The translations under genes were made by a program, and so were the position numbers. Below are positions 2,423 to 40,209 of a stretch of 64,000 nt of DNA, one piece after another (within the stretch, counting starts at the first letter, position 1; the number at the start of each line of letters is the position of its first letter). The notes under the pieces were generated by a model. That model searched no databases. It saw only the letters and a program-made list of their open reading frames with translations, and was not told the origin of the DNA. The DNA comes from Spirochaetia bacterium (GTDB lineage: Bacteria > Spirochaetota > Leptospiria > Turneriellales > JAOUFE01), in the NCBI GenBank assembly GCA_029857955.1, contig JAOUFY010000001.1:95929-159928 (forward strand), read 5' to 3'.

Positions 2423-2983
2423 TTAATATCCGCCGCCGGGTTCTTTTAAAAAATCTGAATATTCATAGATAAATTTTTTAACTTTTGGATCGATAACCGC
2501 CATACAATATGGATTTGCCATTCGGTTCATATTGTAGTAATTTTGATGATAAGGTTCAGCCGTATAAAACTCTGATAATGGTTCTATTGTGGTTACAATG
2601 GGTTCCTTGAAAATTCCGGATTTTTCAAGAATTTCTAGTGATTGTTCTGCAATTTTTTTTTGATCTTCGTTAAGATAAAATATAACCGATCGATACTGTG
2701 TTCCAATGTCGGCGCCCTGACGATTTATTGTAGTAGGGTTATGTATGTGCCAGAATATCTCAAGAATATTTTCAAAGGAAATGATCGAAGGATCATATTC
2801 AATTTTTACAATTTCTACATGATCGCTTGTACCAGAACAAACTTCTTCATATGTCGGGTTTTTGGTCTTACCTCCGGCATATCCAGATATCACGTTCGAT
2901 ACGCCGGAGACTCTTCTGTATATTGCGTCAAGACACCAGAAGCAACCTCCGCCCAGCACAGCGTATTCCATTGGTTTATCCAT
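2423..2983 (-). CDS. msrA: peptide methionine (S)-sulfoxide reductase
   Basis: GGGCFWC active-site motif near the N-terminus and typical MsrA length (186 aa). Confidence 0.9.
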   Translation of the reverse strand: MDKPMEYAVLGGGCFWCLDAIYRRVSGVSNVISGYAGGKTKNPTYEEVCSGTSDHVEIVKIEYDPSIISFENILEIFWHIHNPTTINRQGADIGTQYRSVIFYLNEDQKKIAEQSLEILEKSGIFKEPIVTTIEPLSEFYTAEPYHQNYYNMNRMANPYCMAVIDPKVKKFIYEYSDFLKEPGGGY

Positions 2984-3037: not shown

Positions 3038-4639
3038 TTAATTTAAATCCTGACGTACATGCGACAAGCTGGTTTTTACTACGGTTTTTTGCAGTTTTTC
3101 AAATGTGTTATGACCTGGAATAACAAAATGTTTATGTATAAAATCCGCTTCTGTCATAAAATACATTAAAATTTCGATTACCCATGGAAAAAGCAGTATA
3201 TCTTTTTTAATTGCTTTTCGAAGACATTTCCAGAATAGCCGGCGCATGTTTTTATCAGAATTAAAAATATAAAACTTTACAGTACGGTACATTGCTCCCA
3301 GGAAATATATCCTGAAATGCCTTGGGTCCATTGCATTTTTCAAATATGAGTATTTATGTATAGATTTAAGATCTACCTGATCGATCAAAGCTGCAAAACG
3401 AATATAAAAGTTTTCAGGTTCATAAAGTCTTCGATAAAGAGCTGCATAACCACTTTGAAGAGCTTCTTTTGTCATTAATTTGGGAATAAAATTTGCCTCC
3501 AGATTGGTATCTCCAGATTCAAGGTCAGCCAGTAAACGACCTTCTGCTTCGAGACGATCCCATAGTTTTGTTCCCCTCATGGCGGTTAACATACTGATCA
3601 ACGGTATAGCTACACCGGCCTGGGTTAAAAAATCATATTGCAAATCAAAAATATCAGACGAATCCGCATCGAATCCAACGATCATTCCGAGGGAAAGAAA
3701 AATTCCCCTTGACTGAATGGTTCGAATGGCCTGCACCAAATCAAGATCAGCATTATGACTTTTATTGGTGCTTAAAAGACTTTCTTTACTTGGAGTTTCT
3801 ACGCCAATAAAAAACCCATAAAAATTTGCATCTACAAATAAATCAATGAGTTCGGGATCTTTAACCACGTTTAACGTAAGCTGGGTAAAAAAACGAATTG
3901 GTTTTTTTATAGAACGATTAAACTTGATAATTTCTTTTAAAAGTGATTTAGCATATACACGATTTCCGATAAAATTATCGTCAGCAAAGAATATTTCTGC
4001 CTTACCCCTGCTGATCAAGTCTTTTAGTTCGGCAATTACATTTTCTACCGGCTTAAAACGAGGTTTGCGGCCAAACAGTGAAACAACATCGCAAAACTCG
4101 CAATCATAGGGACAGCCCCTAGAGGTTTGAATGGGAGCTGAAGAATAATCATCGAGGTTTTTAATTGCGCCCCATCGCGGTACCGGACTAATGGAAAGAT
4201 CGGTAATTTGACCGCCTTCATAGAATTTTTTATACGAATTTCTGCTCCATTCCTCTAAAAATACCGGCCAGACTTTTTCTGCTTCGCCAACAACCACAAC
4301 ATCAAATAATTCCCTGGCTTCTTCAATATGTCCTGAAACAAAAGGACCTCCGCCGACGGTCATGATTCCCATTTCTTTACATTGACTTACAATTTCACGA
4401 ATTCTCGGCAAATGCATGGTAAAACCTGTTATGGCAACCAAATCAATTGAGGTATCAAGTTTTAACTCCTCAACATATTCGTCCAGCAACTCTACTTCAT
4501 ATTGTGGAGGAGTAAGCGCTGCTAGAGTTACCAGACCAAGCGGTGCATGTATTGCTTTCTTTTTGGTAAGCGGTTTCATCGCGCTCATTTGCCAGAAAGT
4601 ATCATGACTCTTTGGCTGTATCATTAGTATTTTTGTCAT
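3038..4639 (-). CDS. B12-binding-domain radical SAM protein (long C-terminal extension)
   Basis: N-terminal Rossmann-like B12-binding region (ITGFT...VGGGPFVSGH) followed by RGCPYDCEFC (CxxxCxxC). 533 aa. Confidence 0.8.
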   Translation of the reverse strand: MTKILMIQPKSHDTFWQMSAMKPLTKKKAIHAPLGLVTLAALTPPQYEVELLDEYVEELKLDTSIDLVAITGFTMHLPRIREIVSQCKEMGIMTVGGGPFVSGHIEEARELFDVVVVGEAEKVWPVFLEEWSRNSYKKFYEGGQITDLSISPVPRWGAIKNLDDYSSAPIQTSRGCPYDCEFCDVVSLFGRKPRFKPVENVIAELKDLISRGKAEIFFADDNFIGNRVYAKSLLKEIIKFNRSIKKPIRFFTQLTLNVVKDPELIDLFVDANFYGFFIGVETPSKESLLSTNKSHNADLDLVQAIRTIQSRGIFLSLGMIVGFDADSSDIFDLQYDFLTQAGVAIPLISMLTAMRGTKLWDRLEAEGRLLADLESGDTNLEANFIPKLMTKEALQSGYAALYRRLYEPENFYIRFAALIDQVDLKSIHKYSYLKNAMDPRHFRIYFLGAMYRTVKFYIFNSDKNMRRLFWKCLRKAIKKDILLFPWVIEILMYFMTEADFIHKHFVIPGHNTFEKLQKTVVKTSLSHVRQDLN

Positions 4640-4843: not shown

Positions 4844-6910
4844 TCAATTTTTATTTTTAACCATAAATTGCCCATTATTTATAGTAAGCAATATAATTTT
4901 GTTTTTTTCTATTTTAATTTTGCTTTTATAATGTAGCGTATTTTCTGCCGACTTTATTTCATCTTCCCGAAGCGGTTTAAATTCAACATCAATAAAATGA
5001 TCGCCTGTTGCAAGATTTAATTCTTCATAAACCAGCATCGGACGATCATGTCGAAATCCTCCCGGTTTATAAGGTAAAATGGTTTCATTATCATCAATTT
5101 TTATTTTCAACAGATATGAAAGATAGTAAATCTGACAGGCATTTTTTTTTCTCATATGCACTGGAATACTTTTAATTTCAGCGGCCGTATACTCATGACA
5201 TTTTTCAACATATTCACCCTGCATTTTCCAGGAAAGTTTCAACATACCCTGATCATGTTCTTGATCTATAGATAATCTACTAATGGCAGTTATTCCTGTA
5301 ATCAGCAAAAGACCAACCATCATCGCAATAAATGTTTTAATTGGTCTTGATGAGAAAAAGCTTTGAAACACATTTGAATTTTTTAAAATGAATTTATTTT
5401 TAATGGCGTCTGAAAGTTGTGAAAAATCATTTACTCTAATGATGTTATCACGGTCATCAGCTTCCATTAAACGTGGAGCCCGATTGCCGTCAATTCGTTG
5501 ATGTAACCATTCCGGTCCTTTGCGAAACGTACAATTTGAATCAAGACAGCCAAGTACAATGGTTTTTTCATAATGGCGGGCAACGTGATGTAAATGGGTT
5601 GAGTGAATTACGCCGGTACAGGAAACCATAAACACATCGCTGTCGGGTATATGCAGAGATAAACTTATATTATCATTGTGAGAACATGCAAAAATAAAAT
5701 ATTTTTTTAATGCTTCTTTAGAACTCTCTTCCAGTTCCCTGATTAAATGGAGCAAATCACGGGAAGTTCGATCCGTTGGACCAATGGCAAACGTTGAACA
5801 CGAAGCAGCGCATAAACCGCAACTGACACATTTAATCGCATTAACCACCGGAATCATCGAAGACTCCGCTTTAGCGATCAATTCTTTTTGTTTCATAAAT
5901 ACAGATTCTGTCATATCAATGGCGTCAAACGGACAGTCATAGTAACATTGTTTGCATCCGTGACAAAGCTCCAGATCGACCATAGAAACATAATCTTCTT
6001 TTCGAATTTTTACGGAAGGTTTAAAATACCAGGGTATCGCCAATAAAAGTACGTTAAAACCCAGCAGTAAAAATAAAAAACCTGCAGGTTTTAGAGAAAC
6101 TGGAAAATATAGAAAAAATGAAAAGAATGCATCAACAGGAAAATGAAGTGATGTTGAAAATAAATCAGCCTTCTGTAGCAAGGGAGCCGGGATCATCACA
6201 GACGCGGCAATAAACAATCCGATATAAAATACCGTGGTCTTCCAGTTAAAAAAATACTTTGGCAGGGAAATTCTCGATGTATGAAGCCAGATTCCAAAAA
6301 TCATAATCAAGGGTACCGCCAGATGTATAAAGACAACAAAAAAGAAAAAACTATCGCCGGGTAATTTTTCTCCGCTGAAGGTTCTTAAAAGCGATTCGGG
6401 CATCACGGGAATAATATCCATGATTTTTAAGCCTGTAATTCCGATGATTTTTGCATGTTCATCCCAAACAAGTACGTAACCGGTATAGGCAGAAAAAAAC
6501 AAAAGTCCGGTCATTACAACGCCACTGATCCAGCTTAAAATTCGCGGCCCCCAGCTTCTACCCTGTGCCAGCATTTTAAGCATATGGATTAATATCGCAA
6601 CAACAGCCGCATCAGAAGCGTAACGGTGCAACGCCCTTACCCAGCGTATAAAAACACTATTATCCTGCATAGCCACGATTGACTCATAGGGCGAAGCCAG
6701 GCGGTAAAAAAAAATCAAATATAAACCGCTGACCATGACAACAGAGAAAAACAAAACTGCCAGAGTTCCCGCATTGGCTACAGGATTATACTTTGACTCG
6801 GTTATTTTTTCTAACATCAGCCGCAGCCATTTGTAGACAAAGCGGAATATATAAATCTCTTTCGGGAATTTATTTGGACTATAAAGCTGTTCTGACAATT
6901 TTTCTTTCAT
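4844..6910 (-). CDS. multidomain redox protein: di-heme cytochrome b-like membrane domain, 2x[4Fe-4S] ferredoxin motifs, MvhD/FlpD-like Cys domain, TM helix and an unknown C-terminal domain
   Basis: H95-x13-H109 and H196-x13-H210 lie in predicted TM helices. Two cluster motifs: CHGCKQCYYDCP and CVSCGLCAASC. The segment FIFACSHN..VSCTGV..VLGCLDSNC resembles hydrogenase iron-sulfur (MvhD) domains. Confidence 0.6.
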   Translation of the reverse strand: MKEKLSEQLYSPNKFPKEIYIFRFVYKWLRLMLEKITESKYNPVANAGTLAVLFFSVVMVSGLYLIFFYRLASPYESIVAMQDNSVFIRWVRALHRYASDAAVVAILIHMLKMLAQGRSWGPRILSWISGVVMTGLLFFSAYTGYVLVWDEHAKIIGITGLKIMDIIPVMPESLLRTFSGEKLPGDSFFFFVVFIHLAVPLIMIFGIWLHTSRISLPKYFFNWKTTVFYIGLFIAASVMIPAPLLQKADLFSTSLHFPVDAFFSFFLYFPVSLKPAGFLFLLLGFNVLLLAIPWYFKPSVKIRKEDYVSMVDLELCHGCKQCYYDCPFDAIDMTESVFMKQKELIAKAESSMIPVVNAIKCVSCGLCAASCSTFAIGPTDRTSRDLLHLIRELEESSKEALKKYFIFACSHNDNISLSLHIPDSDVFMVSCTGVIHSTHLHHVARHYEKTIVLGCLDSNCTFRKGPEWLHQRIDGNRAPRLMEADDRDNIIRVNDFSQLSDAIKNKFILKNSNVFQSFFSSRPIKTFIAMMVGLLLITGITAISRLSIDQEHDQGMLKLSWKMQGEYVEKCHEYTAAEIKSIPVHMRKKNACQIYYLSYLLKIKIDDNETILPYKPGGFRHDRPMLVYEELNLATGDHFIDVEFKPLREDEIKSAENTLHYKSKIKIEKNKIILLTINNGQFMVKNKN

Positions 6911-6961
6911 AATTATATTCTCATTTAATTTGCAGCAACCAGCCCCGACCGTGGCTGACTT

Positions 6962-7858
6962 TTATTGTATTTTTTCCAGTGCATCCACAATTCGCATTAC
7001 CCCGGGATTTATCAACGTATAATGTATTTTTTTCTTACTGCTGATCATATAAACAATTCCCTCATGAATGATGTCGCCTGTTTTTTCATTTTTGGAACGT
7101 TCTACTTCGAATTTATTTAAAGCATCAATGGTTTGATCTGGATCGCTTGACGTTAGAACATGGGCGTTGGCAGGTAAATTCCATTTGGTAATCATTTGCT
7201 TTAGCTGACCGGGTTTATCCCTCCATGGATCCAGCGTAATTATATAAATCGAAACATTTGAATTTTTATGTCTAAGCGCAAATATTTTTTCAGCCTTGAC
7301 TATGTTTTCAATCAGCAAAGGACATATTGTCTCGCAATGAAAATAAGCAAAAGTTACAATAGCTGGAACGAAAATATCATTTTCGGTCATGGCTATGTTT
7401 TTTTCTCCAATAAGTTTAAAATGCGGTAAAGATTTTTTACTTACCGGATAATTTTCAGGTAAAGGATCGGCGTTAAATTCATAGGTAATATTTTCTACCC
7501 GCCTTGCGGCTTCTACTTTTTTAACAACAGAATAAAAAAGCCACGTAAAAATAAAAATATAAATACCAACAATGAAAAGTTGAAATTTGTTTGTAAAAGA
7601 ATTTCGTATAGATTGAATTACAACTGGTGGAGACCAGATGATTATAATAGCCAACAGCATACTTAAAGGACTTCCGATTAAATTCAGCCATCCGTAGGTT
7701 TCGGGAAGTCCTGAGGAGGTTTTACCAAAACAAATGAATTTAGCTGATATTAGCCAGTCCGGCGGTTTCTGTGGCATCGGAGCAAAGGCTAGCCCCCATA
7801 GCAAAGCTATGGAGGCAAGCCAGATCATAAGAGCAATCGATACTGACTTGCTCTTCAA
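6962..7858 (-). CDS. senC: SCO1/SenC-family copper chaperone with an N-terminal multi-TM extension
   Basis: Thioredoxin-like C-terminal half with the CETICP (CxxxCP) motif and a downstream conserved His (DIIHEG). It starts 2 nt after subunit I ends. Confidence 0.75.
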   Translation of the reverse strand: MKSKSVSIALMIWLASIALLWGLAFAPMPQKPPDWLISAKFICFGKTSSGLPETYGWLNLIGSPLSMLLAIIIIWSPPVVIQSIRNSFTNKFQLFIVGIYIFIFTWLFYSVVKKVEAARRVENITYEFNADPLPENYPVSKKSLPHFKLIGEKNIAMTENDIFVPAIVTFAYFHCETICPLLIENIVKAEKIFALRHKNSNVSIYIITLDPWRDKPGQLKQMITKWNLPANAHVLTSSDPDQTIDALNKFEVERSKNEKTGDIIHEGIVYMISSKKKIHYTLINPGVMRIVDALEKIQ

Positions 7859-7860
7859 CG

Positions 7861-9579
7861 TTATCCTACTTTCCAGGTAGAAGACAGAATTTTCCAGTTT
7901 ACAAAGAAGTACAATATAAAGGCTACCAGAAATATGAAAACAAGAATCATTGTTCCTTTTGCTCCTTCTTTATGAACTGCGGCAACATTGGCTCCCTGAT
8001 GTACTTGAGCCGATAGCTTAAGGACACCCTGTGGTATGCCGCTTTCGCCGTTTTTAATCGAATCAGCTGTCATTTCTTTACCGAAAAATACAGTCGCAAC
8101 CGCTATCGTGATGAACATAACGGCTCCAAATGCAGCCAAAAGTCCTCCAATACCCATCAATGCTTGAAACAAATTGACAATGTCAGGAAATTGAACGGGG
8201 AAAGGCGAACCTGCAAAGGAAGAATCCCAGTGACGTCTGGGAATACCATACATACCCTGCAAAATCATACCCACTGCCATTACAGAAATACCTGCTCCAA
8301 AAAAATAAGGCTGAACTTTTGCCATACCCCAAAATGCCACACGTTTTCTAAAAATTAACGGCAACACGTAATACGTTACCGCCATAAAAGCCAAAGCTGT
8401 TCCGCCTACAACAGTGACATGAAAATGGCCTGGAATTCTCATGGTATTGTGCGCTATGATATTGATTTGCTCGGTACCCAGAGTAACCCCGGTGATACCT
8501 CCCATAAATCCAAAAATTACCAGCGAAAGCATCATACCTGAAAATCCAGGATCGCTCCATGGAGCTTTACTCAACCACTCAAAGCGTGTATTTACAAAAC
8601 CTTTAAGACGTTGACCAATTTCAATACCGGCAGGAACCGTAAAACCATGGATCATACTGGCCAGTACCGCAAGGTACATTGCATAGGATGTGTTCCAGAT
8701 TTTCCATGCGCTGCCCATTCCCGGGTCGACCAGAAGATGGTGAGCCGACGCCATTGAGATAAATAGTATGTACAGAACAAACGCAACACGACTGATTTTC
8801 TCATTAAGTACCACCCCGCCAACGGTTAATCCGGCCAGCAAATACCATATAGAAACCATCGCCGCAACGTTGATTTGTTGAGATGAATGACCAAGAGCCC
8901 AGAAAATCAATCGATAGATTTCAGGATCCATTTTCATCAAGTTCAGAGACCACAATAACGTTGGTATATAAATCAACGCTCCATGGATTAACGTGATGAT
9001 CGCGATAATTGTTGCTGTTAACGCGCCAAAAGTCACCAACGGTATAGAACCTGGATAGGTTTTATCTTTTTTAGCGGCCACAAGCGTGGCCATAAACAAC
9101 ATACACACAATCAATGCCCCGACGGCAAACAAAATAATCCCGACATAATACAAAGGATCGGCCATCAGCGGCGGATACGAAGTAAACAGTACATCGGCTT
9201 TGCCGGAATAAACCATAACGTTGACAAGAATTGCGCCTAGCATCATTAAACCAAAACTAACCCATCCAAGTTTTGGCGCAGGAAGTCGCGAATTTAACAA
9301 AACCGGACCTGCAAAATACAATACTGCCATTTCAAAAAATATGATGAAAAAAATCAGCATATTTAATCCATGCGAAGTTAACAGGCGATAATACCATTCC
9401 GCATTCAGTAAATGAACAGCCTGCCAGCGTGTAAGAACAATTCCAAACGCAGCGATCACACCCAAGAGCATAAATACTACGGCAACTACAGCATTAGCCT
9501 TAATCAGGTTTTCTGCATTTTTATCCACTTTTAATCCCGTTACGGGACACTTTCTAAACAAGTCAGCTATTGCGTTCAT
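7861..9579 (-). CDS. heme-copper oxidoreductase subunit I, B-family (ba3)-like, lacking the cross-link Tyr
   Basis: 572 aa with TSH70G, TSYPPL, GH231SSQQ, AH280H281 and GH385FH387. Spacing between H231 and H280 is the same as in ba3 CbaA. Position H+4 is Gln instead of Tyr. Confidence 0.85.
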   Translation of the reverse strand: MNAIADLFRKCPVTGLKVDKNAENLIKANAVVAVVFMLLGVIAAFGIVLTRWQAVHLLNAEWYYRLLTSHGLNMLIFFIIFFEMAVLYFAGPVLLNSRLPAPKLGWVSFGLMMLGAILVNVMVYSGKADVLFTSYPPLMADPLYYVGIILFAVGALIVCMLFMATLVAAKKDKTYPGSIPLVTFGALTATIIAIITLIHGALIYIPTLLWSLNLMKMDPEIYRLIFWALGHSSQQINVAAMVSIWYLLAGLTVGGVVLNEKISRVAFVLYILFISMASAHHLLVDPGMGSAWKIWNTSYAMYLAVLASMIHGFTVPAGIEIGQRLKGFVNTRFEWLSKAPWSDPGFSGMMLSLVIFGFMGGITGVTLGTEQINIIAHNTMRIPGHFHVTVVGGTALAFMAVTYYVLPLIFRKRVAFWGMAKVQPYFFGAGISVMAVGMILQGMYGIPRRHWDSSFAGSPFPVQFPDIVNLFQALMGIGGLLAAFGAVMFITIAVATVFFGKEMTADSIKNGESGIPQGVLKLSAQVHQGANVAAVHKEGAKGTMILVFIFLVAFILYFFVNWKILSSTWKVG

Positions 9580-10127
9580 AACGATTCCCCCACAATGATT
9601 TTACCGACCATATTGTGATGGCCGATACCGCAAAATTCGTTACAAATGATGTTGAAATCACCTGCAATCGAAGGCGTAATTTTTAATCCATAATCATAAC
9701 CCGGAATAACCTGAAAGTTTAGTTTCGCAGGGTACAGACTAAACCCATGATTTACATCTACCGAAGAAAGATGAAGCGTATATTCAACTCCCTTCTTTAG
9801 TTTAATAACGGGGGTCCATTCCCACATATGCCCCAGCAGATAAACGTCGCTTCCTGCCGGAGGCTCGACTACGGGAATACCATTTTCGGTACCCACCTGA
9901 TAATCTTTTATAAAACGATCTACCCTGGCCTGATAATCTGCTTCGATAACTCTGGTACGAATACCCGACGGATTTTGTCCGCCTTTGATATGCCAAAACG
10001 GCATCATGCCAAATAAAACAAGGCACCAGATAAAAGCAATGGTGATCCATCTTTTTTCCTGGGAAGCCGCCGGTTTCCACCATATTCCTTCAGGGGAAAC
10101 AATCCCCGAATGCATTTCCATATCCAT
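9576..10127 (-). CDS. heme-copper oxidoreductase subunit II (CuA cupredoxin)
   Basis: One N-terminal TM helix. CuA ligands NHGF...CNEFCGIGHHNM (H, C-x3-C-x3-H-x2-M). 4-nt overlap with subunit I. Confidence 0.85.
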   Translation of the reverse strand: MDMEMHSGIVSPEGIWWKPAASQEKRWITIAFIWCLVLFGMMPFWHIKGGQNPSGIRTRVIEADYQARVDRFIKDYQVGTENGIPVVEPPAGSDVYLLGHMWEWTPVIKLKKGVEYTLHLSSVDVNHGFSLYPAKLNFQVIPGYDYGLKITPSIAGDFNIICNEFCGIGHHNMVGKIIVGESL

Positions 10128-10293
10128 TATTCTCTCCTTTTTTTTAATTCTAAATTCTTAACTAATATTGAAAGTGTTTTGATAAAAAAGATTTCCTGCT
10201 AACCTTAAAATACAGAAAATAATATAACCATATTTTAAAGCACTCTATGGTTTAAATTGACTTTTTTCTTTTTTAGTGATCTTTGTGTACCCT

Positions 10294-10442
10294 GGTACTA
10301 TGTCTGTTTAATTTATACATGTTCAAACTTAAATTGGCTCCGCATTAATTTTAAAAATGGCGAAGCGCACATACTTGTTAAGTAGCGTTTCCGCTTGAAT
10401 TTGCTTTGCGCAAGCGGAACAAATCAAAAAGACACGGTACTA
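10294..10442. mobile_element. MITE-like intergenic repeat, family A, copy 1
   Basis: About 136-nt core with imperfect terminal inverted repeats (TGTCTGTTTAATTT / AAATCAAAAAGACA). It is flanked by the direct repeat GGTACTA (10294..10300 and 10436..10442). A second copy lies at 39990..40209. Confidence 0.6.
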
Positions 10443-10465
10443 GAGAGAAATCGTTTCATAATACT

Positions 10466-10630
10466 TTAAGGTAACGTACCTTTCGGTAAACTCAACACTT
10501 CATATAGTCCCCAGATCGTATAAAACACAAACATAACTCCCAGTCCAGCAAACAGCAACAAGAAAGGACTGTCGAGTAGTCGTTGACCCAATGGTATACT
10601 TTTGTCTTTATTTTTTTCTAAATCACCCAT
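10466..10630 (-). CDS. unannotated 54-aa single-TM protein, candidate oxidase subunit IIa
   Basis: Hand translation: MGDLEKNKDKSIPLGQRLLDSPFLLLFAGLGVMFVFYTIWGLYEVLSLPKGTLP. AAGGAG lies 5 nt before the ATG. It sits upstream of subunit II on the same strand, as cbaD does in Thermus. It is below the ORF-track length cut-off. Confidence 0.5.
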   Translation of the reverse strand: MGDLEKNKDKSIPLGQRLLDSPFLLLFAGLGVMFVFYTIWGLYEVLSLPKGTLP

Positions 10631-33445: not shown

Positions 33446-34117
33446 TTAATTAAATTTGACTTTAAATTCTGAAAGCATTTTTTTATAATCAATATTTTTT
33501 TCAATTTTATATCTTTCATATAAAGATTTAACAAATTCTTGTTTTAATAAACCGCGTTTTTCCTGAATCATGTTTTGCTTAGTAAACAGCAAGCCCTCTT
33601 CAATCGGTACTGTCTTATAATTCTCATTTTTTTCTCGTTCAGCAAGCCATCTGCTTTCAACATCCTCATCTTTGACATCTACCTTTATTTTTGAAATGAT
33701 ATTATTTAAATAAAGTTGAGTTATTGTAAAATCATGTAAAAACTTTTCAATTTGAATTGTATCTTTTTTTTCAAAATAATGGTTTTCTGCGGCATGTTTC
33801 TTCAAAAGCATGATTGTCATATAATTTTCGCCGAAAATACCCGGATTCATTTGCTCAGCCATGGCCCTGGATCTGGGATCTGCTATATTTTCTGCTTTAT
33901 TGATATATTCCAGCAATGCATCCGTAGAAGTGCCCATTTGTAAAGACATAAGCTGCAAATACGACTTGTAGTCATTAGAAAACTCATCTAACGTATACTC
34001 TTGCTTATCAATCTTCCATAACCAATCGCCTGCCTTTGAATACAATGGAAAAACAAACACTGCAAGAACAGGAATGATTAGATACTTTTTTTTAGATGAC
34101 TTTTTATTTAAAATCAT
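33446..34117 (-). CDS. hypothetical secreted protein, possibly SurA N-terminal-domain-like chaperone
   Basis: Signal peptide and a helical body. There is only loose resemblance to SurA_N-type domains and no PPIase motif. Confidence 0.35.
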   Translation of the reverse strand: MILNKKSSKKKYLIIPVLAVFVFPLYSKAGDWLWKIDKQEYTLDEFSNDYKSYLQLMSLQMGTSTDALLEYINKAENIADPRSRAMAEQMNPGIFGENYMTIMLLKKHAAENHYFEKKDTIQIEKFLHDFTITQLYLNNIISKIKVDVKDEDVESRWLAEREKNENYKTVPIEEGLLFTKQNMIQEKRGLLKQEFVKSLYERYKIEKNIDYKKMLSEFKVKFN

Positions 34118-34124
34118 ATTATTT

Positions 34125-34532
34125 CTATTCCTGATCTTCCAGTTTTTTTTGCATTTGATAAATTCGAAACGTTAGAATAAATATAAGCAAAAGGAGAATG
34201 GTCACCGCCAGAAATACATAAAAAAACCTGTCAGCAGCTGTTTTATCTGCCTTCCTTTTATAGTATTCTTCAATTAACCAAAATTTGCGAGATTCTTTTA
34301 TATTTTGAACATTCTGCATTTTATCTGACGACATATACTGATTTGTAAAATTTTCCAGCATCTCGAAAGAAAAACCGGATAATATATTCCTTGCTTCTTT
34401 GGTTTCTGCGTTATAAAAAAGTTCAAATGATTTTTCGTCTTCTGATTTTCCTGTGTCTTGAGAATATAGCGTTGAGACTTTAAACATTAAAATGATGGTT
34501 GCCGCCATCCGTATTTTTTTATTTACTTTCAT
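34125..34532 (-). CDS. hypothetical protein with signal peptide and a C-terminal TM helix (CcmD-like tail?)
   Basis: 135 aa. It starts 8 nt after the ccmC stop. The C-terminal FFYVFLAVTILLLLIFILTFRIYQMQKK resembles the single-TM layout of CcmD. Confidence 0.4.
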   Translation of the reverse strand: MKVNKKIRMAATIILMFKVSTLYSQDTGKSEDEKSFELFYNAETKEARNILSGFSFEMLENFTNQYMSSDKMQNVQNIKESRKFWLIEEYYKRKADKTAADRFFYVFLAVTILLLLIFILTFRIYQMQKKLEDQE

Positions 34533-34540
34533 AATTTCAA

Positions 34541-35245
34541 TTATCCTTTTGCCTCTAATATTCTTCTTTCTTGTTCTAAAAACCTGTAATATAAATAACT
34601 TAATAATAACGACAGCAATTGAAACGCAGCCAAAGATACCAGCAATGTAATCAACATTTGTTCCGAAATACTGCCAACAGGTTTAGGGTGAGACGGCGGA
34701 TTCCATATTCGTATGGCCATGTATACAAGAGGGACATTAAAAAAAGCAACAATTCCCAGAATTGCTGAAAACCTTGCCCTTTTCTGAGGATCAGCGACTC
34801 CCATGCGCAAAAGCATATAACCGGCATACGCCATCCATAAAATAAAATAAGTCACCAGTCTCTGGTCAGTCCAGTTCCAATACCCGCCCCAGATTGGTTT
34901 TGCCCACAGTGGCCCTGTAATTAAAACCCCTGTTGTAAATACCCAGCCTACGGTTGCATATGCTGAAGCCAGGCTGTCATTTTTTAAATTACGTCTGGCA
35001 AGATAAATGATACTGTATAAAAATGACAGGGCAAAACACACGCCTGATACCCATGCTGTAGGTACATGATAGTAAAAAATCCTTTGAGCGATTCCCTGTC
35101 TTGTATCGGATGGTACCCAGAAAAAAGTCATCCAGGCCGCCAAGAACCACAAGATCATTGTAACCCCAATCCAGTATGGCATAATACGTGCCAAAGTCGA
35201 TGTATTTTTGCTTTTCACTTGGTTGCCATTTTTTCTTTTTACCAT
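34541..35245 (-). CDS. ccmC: heme exporter protein C (cytochrome c maturation system I)
   Basis: WWD-type tryptophan-rich motif PIWGGYWNWTDQRL with flanking conserved His residues. Six predicted TM helices. Confidence 0.8.
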   Translation of the reverse strand: MVKRKNGNQVKSKNTSTLARIMPYWIGVTMILWFLAAWMTFFWVPSDTRQGIAQRIFYYHVPTAWVSGVCFALSFLYSIIYLARRNLKNDSLASAYATVGWVFTTGVLITGPLWAKPIWGGYWNWTDQRLVTYFILWMAYAGYMLLRMGVADPQKRARFSAILGIVAFFNVPLVYMAIRIWNPPSHPKPVGSISEQMLITLLVSLAAFQLLSLLLSYLYYRFLEQERRILEAKG

Positions 35246-39989: not shown

Positions 39990-40209
39990 AGTATTATGTC
40001 TGTTTAATTTATACATGTTCAAACTTGAAGTGGCTCCGCATTAATTTTAAATATTGTGAAGCACACAAACTTGTTAAGTATTTATCGATGGTTTGTGTCG
40101 TATATTGGTGCTTTTTTTGACATTAATCACGCTAAAGAGACTTGTCAAGTAGCGTTTCCGTTTGAATTTGTTTTGCGCAGGCTGAACAAATCAAAAAGAC
40201 ACGGCACTA
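39990..40209. mobile_element. MITE-like intergenic repeat, family A, copy 2 (with a 71-nt internal insertion/duplication)
   Basis: It aligns to 10300..10435 with about 11 mismatches over 136 nt (hand alignment). An extra 71 nt (40081..40151) is bounded by the direct repeats ACTTGTTAAGTA / ACTTGTCAAGTA. Confidence 0.55.

Follow-up and report, generated by a model that had tools for sequence, protein, structure and literature searches.

What does a heme-copper oxidoreductase reduce when it keeps all of its metal ligands but lacks the tyrosine that is cross-linked to an active-site histidine in oxygen reductases? The question is raised by a gene cluster on the minus strand of a 64-kb stretch of DNA (the window) from a metagenome-assembled genome (MAG) of the Spirochaetia. 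Its catalytic subunit I (7861..9579, 572 aa; PF00115, E=1.9e-62) has glutamine at the position of that tyrosine, and the enzyme is labelled, wrongly according to our analysis, as an oxidase in public records. We conclude that the cluster most likely encodes a nitric oxide (NO) reductase of the eNOR family, which is derived from B-family oxygen reductases and converts 2 NO to nitrous oxide (N2O). Activity as an NO reductase would follow by analogy with the one purified eNOR and from the nir genes lying beside relatives. The window enzyme is a member of a family already described (Hemp & Gennis 2008) and partly characterized, and what is new is the record of a spirochaete host.

Glutamine at the tyrosine site of subunit I

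All six His ligands (H70, H231, H280, H281, H385 and H387) are kept in subunit I, and the motifs TSYPPL, FWALGHSSQQ and AHH start at residues 133, 226 and 279, respectively; the preliminary description of this DNA had listed these ligands at the positions where they were found, and had named the TSYPPL motif as well. The same description had aligned the protein without gaps to the Thermus ba3 oxidase, with Gln at Y237 and a 49-residue spacing, and both HMMER and MAFFT bear this out. In the HMMER comparison with PDB sequences, 'fwalghssqqinvaam...' pairs with 'fwwtghpivyfwllpay...' without a gap, placing Q235 on Y237, and H231 and H280 are 49 residues apart, as are H233 and H282 of ba3 (ba3 numbering was rebuilt from the HMMER output and confirmed by the MAFFT alignment). 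Translation and the ba3 alignment place the Gln235 codon, CAA, at 8875..8877. The hallmark of B-family O2 reductases, the cross-linked His-Tyr pair of helix VI, is thus missing, whereas the fold and the remaining ligands match.

Q234 and Q235 are invariant in an alignment of 32 sequences. Of the 120 nearest database clusters, 119 have Gln at site 235, as do at least 79 of 80 related loci. These are the best 80 genome loci, all from MAGs and with 61–81% identity, among at least 563 species in which a scan of one genome per species found a subunit I relative. In a wider comparison, all 16 clade members carry Gln at site 235 and all 19 outgroup sequences carry Tyr, a split that no other alignment site shows. 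Since Gln235 is conserved across relatives, it reflects neither chance nor sequencing error, and the enzyme is, as read from its sequence, a genuinely Tyr-less heme-copper enzyme.

The preliminary description had considered that Y246, Y270 or a helix VII tyrosine, as in cbb3 enzymes, might occupy the cross-link position, and the alignment excludes all three. Y246 corresponds to ba3 Y248, which is found in normal oxidases, and Y270 is carried by Tyr-keeping relatives; as both also occur in relatives that keep the cross-link tyrosine, they were ruled out as stand-ins. The cbb3-type position, 6 residues ahead of the HH pair in helix VII, is Ile274 in the window protein and Ile throughout the clade. 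Two further tyrosines, Tyr299 and Tyr302, are encoded at about 8674..8685. Tyr299 is present in 16 of 16 Gln-bearing sequences and is replaced by Ile, Leu or Val in the Tyr-keeping relatives, and Tyr302 follows a weaker version of this pattern. Judged by helix periodicity, Tyr299 would point away from both the active site and the K channel, from the far side of helix VIII.

An AlphaFold model of subunit I, built with a 39-sequence alignment (predicted local distance difference test score, 89.7; predicted template modelling score, 0.91), contains H231 and Q235 within one continuous helix (219–253), so the two residues would share a common face, as His233 and Tyr237 do in ba3. The best solved matches found by Foldseek were the B-family oxidases of Aquifex and Thermus (7DEG and ba3), with a template modelling score to ba3 of about 0.8, and no eNOR structure was present among the PDB entries searched. 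Of the ba3 K-channel residues, subunit I keeps matches at Y246, S308 and T314 and has H311 in place of T312. S308, the equivalent of ba3 S309, is nearly invariant in the relatives, and where ba3 has Y244, S261 and T312, subunit I has V, N and H, respectively.

Subunit II (9576..10127, 183 aa) was assigned from motifs and alignment, and consists of one membrane helix and a cupredoxin domain. Its matches to PF00116 and TIGR02866 are weak; the alignment to the CuA domain of ba3 (E=4e-15) matches every ligand, namely H127 (in NHGF), C162, C166, H170 and M173, in agreement with the full CuA set noted previously. Near its N-terminus, E24 (in QEKRW) is presumably the counterpart of ba3 E15.

Probable assignment to the eNOR family and the alternatives

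The residue at the tyrosine site has been tabulated as Tyr in oxidases, Glu in cNOR and qNOR, Asn in sNOR, Gln in eNOR, Asp in gNOR and Asn in CuANOR (PMC8756737, Table A4 and Fig. 6). In that study Gln marks eNOR in the tree, and eNOR is reported from Halobacteria, Chloroflexi, Thermus and Proteobacteria. The eNOR enzymes are further described as having a CuA subunit and B-family-like K-channel residues including S309, a serine that sNOR lacks (PMC11214002), and in a preprint eNOR clusters with a Tyr-bearing 'K' oxidase family.

In a neighbour-joining tree of 16 Gln-bearing and 19 Tyr-bearing sequences (100 bootstraps), all 16 Gln-bearing sequences, including the window subunit I and those of Natrarchaeobius, Thermus thermophilus plasmids, Thermomicrobium roseum and Defluviimonas, formed one clade with 100% bootstrap support; just outside it were Tyr-keeping archaeal-type sequences, with the ba3-type oxidases further out. 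Relatives outside the tight family were found by a search of 50%-identity representatives. They include P0121 (58% identity) and P0125 (39%, from the haloarchaeon Natrarchaeobius), both with the QQ motif, and the Tyr-keeping P0126 (Hodarchaeales), P0130 (Thermoproteota), P0128 and P0140, which have H-x-x-Q-Y. Plasmid relatives from cultured hosts were found by tblastn in Defluviimonas (53%), Thermomicrobium roseum (45%) and Thermus thermophilus (45–49%, including the denitrifying isolate NAR1), and all of them carry GH[GS][AS]QQ[IV]N. The same motif occurs in a homolog from an Ardenticatenales MAG, which was found via the T. roseum protein and is outside the tree sample; in Ardenticatena maritima, a host known from the literature, eNOR and nirK are reported to share an operon. 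A Gln clade with haloarchaeal, Thermus and Thermomicrobium members next to Tyr-keeping sequences fits both the published distribution of eNOR and its link to the K family. In the Thermus homologs the low-spin heme ligand motif HFH reads HFK, which corresponds to the ligation by His and Lys that PMC11214002 ascribes to some eNORs. The Thermus accessions recovered were also compared with the eNOR cited in PMC8756737 (WP_015717644.1), from which they differ.

Because Gln235 and S308 match published eNOR traits, and the clade and the gene order fit them, the enzyme was filed as eNOR and not as sNOR. The preliminary description had proposed an NO-reductase-like or uncharacterized lineage. The former part holds, as the enzyme is B-family-derived, with CuA intact and no cross-link tyrosine; the latter does not, since Gln is a published diagnostic of eNOR. 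The window enzyme resembles described eNORs in its Gln, the three-His second metal site, the CuA subunit II and the K-channel-like residues including the S309 equivalent, as well as in its closeness to a Tyr-bearing oxidase group, its relatives in Halobacteria, Thermus and Chloroflexi and the nir genes near relatives. It differs in its host, a Spirochaetia MAG, and in a cluster without a heme O or heme A synthase gene. The eNOR purified from Rhodothermus marinus reduces NO at 0.68 per s, does not reduce O2 with several donors, and contains heme A-type cofactors (Murali et al., PNAS 2024; PMC11214002).

In the mechanism we propose, electrons would enter at the CuA centre of subunit II, the copper of which would be loaded by the SenC/Sco protein, and would move on to the low-spin heme, ligated by H70 and H387, and then to the high-spin heme (H385), next to which H231, H280 and H281 would bind a second metal, either Fe or Cu. 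Gln235 would lie one helical turn below H231, at the site of the redox-active cross-linked Tyr of oxidases; in cNOR, the position that we take to match it is that of the FeB-ligand Glu (Glu211 in the NorBC structure). Without the cross-link tyrosine the enzyme would have no fourth electron for splitting O2, whereas NO reduction takes two electrons. The K-channel-like residues Y246, S308, H311 and T314 could supply cytoplasmic protons, in which case NO reduction would be electrogenic. Electrons would be given or relayed by a cytochrome b/Fe-S partner described below, and in the host the enzyme could serve respiration or NO detoxification.

The order small membrane ORF (open reading frame), II, I, senC and large redox ORF, noted in the preliminary description and seen in the window, had been likened there to the norSY-senC-orf1 cluster. 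Identity with sNOR, the norSY-senC type of ammonia oxidisers, is nevertheless very improbable. The sNOR enzymes are likewise B-family-derived, have CuA and lack the Tyr, and in the window senC also follows subunit I and precedes a large redox ORF. However, the Tyr position is occupied by Asn in sNOR, which has no S309 equivalent and instead carries a different, conserved channel Glu elsewhere (PMC11214002, PMC8756737), whereas the window protein has Gln235 and S308, and its Gln-bearing relatives all fall in one clade. The senC gene does not separate the two, as senC/sco1 belongs to eNOR operons too, which often include heme o/a synthase genes. The eNOR operon of Ferrigenium straubiae runs from II and I through heme o synthase and sco1 to a scaffold protein, and cytochrome b/Fe-S proteins are encoded close by (bioRxiv 10.64898/2026.01.22.701106); as this operon has sco1, a senC neighbour is normal for eNOR. 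Genes on Geobacillus and Deinococcus plasmids, tried as sNOR references, turned out to be ordinary Tyr-bearing B-family oxidases.

Several observations weigh against the eNOR assignment. Just one enzyme of the family has been assayed so far, and there is continuing dispute over what the related sNOR does. The family call rests on published diagnostics and on lineages reported as eNOR carriers, not on R. marinus or NorY sequences; no Rhodothermus was found among the best 80 genome loci, the plasmid tblastn matches or the protein search with the T. roseum homolog, which recovered Chloroflexi and Ardenticatenales. The gain of Tyr299 co-varies with the Tyr-to-Gln change at 235. No nir, nos or nap gene and no heme O or heme A synthase gene was found in the 64-kb window, although eNOR has been reported with heme A-type cofactors. 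When the neighbours of subunit I in the 80 related loci were counted by tblastn, with nirS and NirK-like genes scored within 10 kb, few loci had either (5 of 80 with nirS and 9 of 80 with a NirK-like gene).

Some of these points would also agree with an enzyme that still reduced O2 or another oxidant without the canonical tyrosine, perhaps via a radical on Tyr299 or Tyr302. The metal ligands, the CuA site and the K-channel-like residues are all in place, Y299 is found in just that clade from which Y235 was lost, no nir gene is within the window, and the Tyr-less sNOR has been argued to be an oxidase from its expression under low O2. We nevertheless regard this as unlikely, because the purified eNOR gave no O2 reduction with several donors, the cbb3-type position is Ile274, relatives are linked to nirS, NirK-like and Rrf2 genes, and helix periodicity would set Y299 opposite the K channel and the active site. 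Even less probable than sNOR is a decaying or non-catalytic oxidase relic, acquired horizontally by a fermentative spirochaete. A G+C content of 0.43 in the operon against about 0.34 in the flanks, a repeat element inserted within the operon and the lack of further respiratory nitrogen genes in the window would agree with a relic, but none of the five ORFs is disrupted, no cofactor ligand has been lost, and subunit I is 72–78% identical between phyla, with hundreds of invariant positions.

Other known enzymes share part of the features of the window eNOR-type enzyme. Thermus ba3 (1EHK, 3S8F) is the closest solved fold and has the same His ligands, CuA, TSYPPL-type motif and small-ORF-II-I order, but identity is just 21–24% and Tyr237 is Gln in the window protein. 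The cNOR and qNOR enzymes, such as NorBC of Pseudomonas aeruginosa, likewise carry a fourth residue near the second metal at the H+4 position, Glu there and Gln here. They differ in belonging to the C-family branch, in using cytochrome c or quinol as donor, and in having neither CuA nor a cytoplasmic proton channel. Gln235, the CuA subunit and the nearest solved folds, which are B- and A-family oxidases, all set the window enzyme apart from them. The bNOR/qCuANOR of Bacillus azotoformans is a B-derived NO reductase with CuA and a K-type channel and was demonstrated to be electrogenic, but it has Asn at the site and is confined to the Bacillales.

Read as an oxidase, the enzyme would make this Spirochaetia MAG and hundreds of other genomes seem aerobes; more likely they are consumers of NO and producers of N2O, a greenhouse gas. 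Correct labelling as eNOR alters how the role of these hosts in the nitrogen cycle is scored, and recent surveys rank eNOR first in abundance among the nor types of estuaries.

Relatives, their neighbours and the cytochrome b/Fe-S partner

At least 8000 protein clusters match the window subunit I at E <= 1e-10, and the best 120 of them (71–100% identity) come from Bdellovibrionota, Oligoflexia, Eisenbacteria and others. Hosts of the 80 related loci include Bdellovibrionota, Spirochaetia, Gemmatimonadota, Acidobacteriota, Methylomirabilota, Rokubacteria, Kiritimatiellia and Myxococcota, among others. A spirochaete host had seemed unexpected in the preliminary description; it is less surprising now that an 81% identical copy is known from a second Spirochaetia MAG and copies with 61–78% identity from about a dozen phyla.

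Subunit I is accompanied by subunit II in 79 of the 80 loci, by the small ORF, lying directly upstream of subunit II, in 75, and by SenC, which follows subunit I, in 74. A cytochrome b/Fe-S protein is near it in 67 (examples are L001, L003, L005, L089 and L093–L095), an Rrf2 regulator in 22 and a heme O synthase in 4; the Defluviimonas, T. roseum and L005 relatives have such a synthase gene. The cluster has nirS as its immediate neighbour in a 5-Mb genome, in a complete Bdellovibrionota chromosome and in a Bdellovibrionaceae genome, and also in the P0121 contigs, a single metagenome contig type (L005/L006) that also carries napA and napD. The Thermus plasmid cluster (L087, L088 and L096) includes genes for a NirK-like protein with an extra cupredoxin domain, cytochrome P460, a radical SAM/SPASM protein, Rrf2, DUF542 and MsrA. 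On one T. thermophilus plasmid (L097), the eNOR-type gene is truncated by a transposase.

The partner encoded at 4844..6910 (minus strand; Pfam Cytochrome_B and Fer4, NCBIfam) is a 688-aa redox protein with two H-x13-H pairs, the pattern usual for di-heme cytochrome b, two CX2CX2CX3C [4Fe-4S] motifs, and four additional Cys in a weakly MvhD/FlpD-like region, followed by a late membrane helix. Its C-terminal 180 aa have conserved C...C, HMR and DRP motifs and no Pfam match; this domain has a gene of its own in many genomes, is part of a fusion elsewhere, as in the window, and was found near subunit I in 57 of the 80 loci. In reverse look-ups starting from the partner, it lay directly after SenC in three of three cases. 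It is far less conserved than the reductase, with 33–36% identity to its relatives versus 72–78% for subunit I.

The window shares the order II, I, sco1 and the neighbouring cytochrome b/Fe-S proteins with the F. straubiae operon, from which it differs in that the latter has a heme o synthase and that one of its cytochrome b proteins adds FAD and NADH domains. The Defluviimonas plasmid has the order II, I, Sco1 and then a cytochrome b/Fe-S protein. The authors of the Ferrigenium study called these cytochrome b proteins 'rather unusual' (bioRxiv 10.64898/2026.01.22.701106), whereas here such a protein is found in 67 of 80 loci.

The partner probably supplies or relays electrons to the eNOR, which is the least certain step of the mechanism. 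A bolder and only tentative idea is that the reductase of this subclade has its own membrane electron-input module, made up of the di-heme cytochrome b, two [4Fe-4S] clusters, the MvhD-like region and a predicted periplasmic Cys/His-Met-Arg domain. Together they might form a self-contained NO reductase driven by quinol or a cytoplasmic reductant, independent of bc1 and soluble cytochrome c. Such a module, if it exists, could account for the operon's ability to work once transferred into, for example, a spirochaete. The enzymology of the reductase itself is not new, and the conserved partner is the part with the potential for new insight, on how electrons are supplied.

Unusual ligand sets were seen in some distant relatives. 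In P0165 (a Dehalococcoidia MAG), P0178, P0196, P0239 and P0248, Tyr takes the place of the leading His in the HH pair and, except in one protein with Arg, also that of the high-spin heme's proximal His, and helix VI reads FH(V/I/N)(N/Y/M)HY; to our knowledge, this set is not that of any described family. P0244, a 479-aa protein from a Logan assembly, has H-I-L-Q-F in the active-site helix and no HH pair, and appears to be a heme-copper homolog without the ligands of the second metal.

Operon layout and flanking DNA

The five ORFs of the cluster are co-directional and intact, and the positions stated in the preliminary description were confirmed. A 54-aa ORF (10466..10630) heads the cluster on the minus strand in the position of ba3 subunit IIa; it has a good ribosome-binding site, encodes a protein with one hydrophobic membrane helix, and gave no match in a Pfam search. 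The last gene before the partner (6962..7858, minus strand) encodes the Sco1/SenC copper chaperone (PF02630, E=7e-17), with three N-terminal membrane helices and C175-x3-C179 in a CETIC motif.

The spacer between the small ORF and subunit II (10128..10465) is unusually long in comparison with related loci, 338 nt versus a median of ~20 nt, Spirochaetia locus L013 included. It contains a repeat of ~150 nt (about 10296..10442), a second copy of which, ~92% identical and with 71 extra internal bases, is located 30 kb away at 39992..40209. The repeat, within which a perfect 10-bp inverted repeat is found (GTTCCGCTTG / CAAGCGGAAC), may be a small mobile or regulatory element inserted into the operon. 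An Rfam scan of the spacer and the upstream region returned nothing meaningful, and inspection by eye for FNR and NsrR boxes upstream of the small ORF revealed nothing convincing.

The G+C content is 0.38–0.43 across 6001..10000, which covers the operon, versus ~0.34 in the flanks. This rise, together with the 72–78% identity of subunit I to proteins of unrelated phyla, is consistent with horizontal acquisition of the operon.

Directly downstream on the same strand are genes (2423..2983 and 3038..4639) for a DUF4070-containing, B12-binding radical SAM protein and for an MsrA. None of the 80 related loci has the radical SAM gene; MsrA is also near the Thermus copies, which may be coincidence. 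Elsewhere in the window, a gene for a cytochrome c assembly protein (PF01578) lies with two unannotated neighbours at 33446..35245, suggesting that the host makes c-type cytochromes, which are possible donors to CuA.

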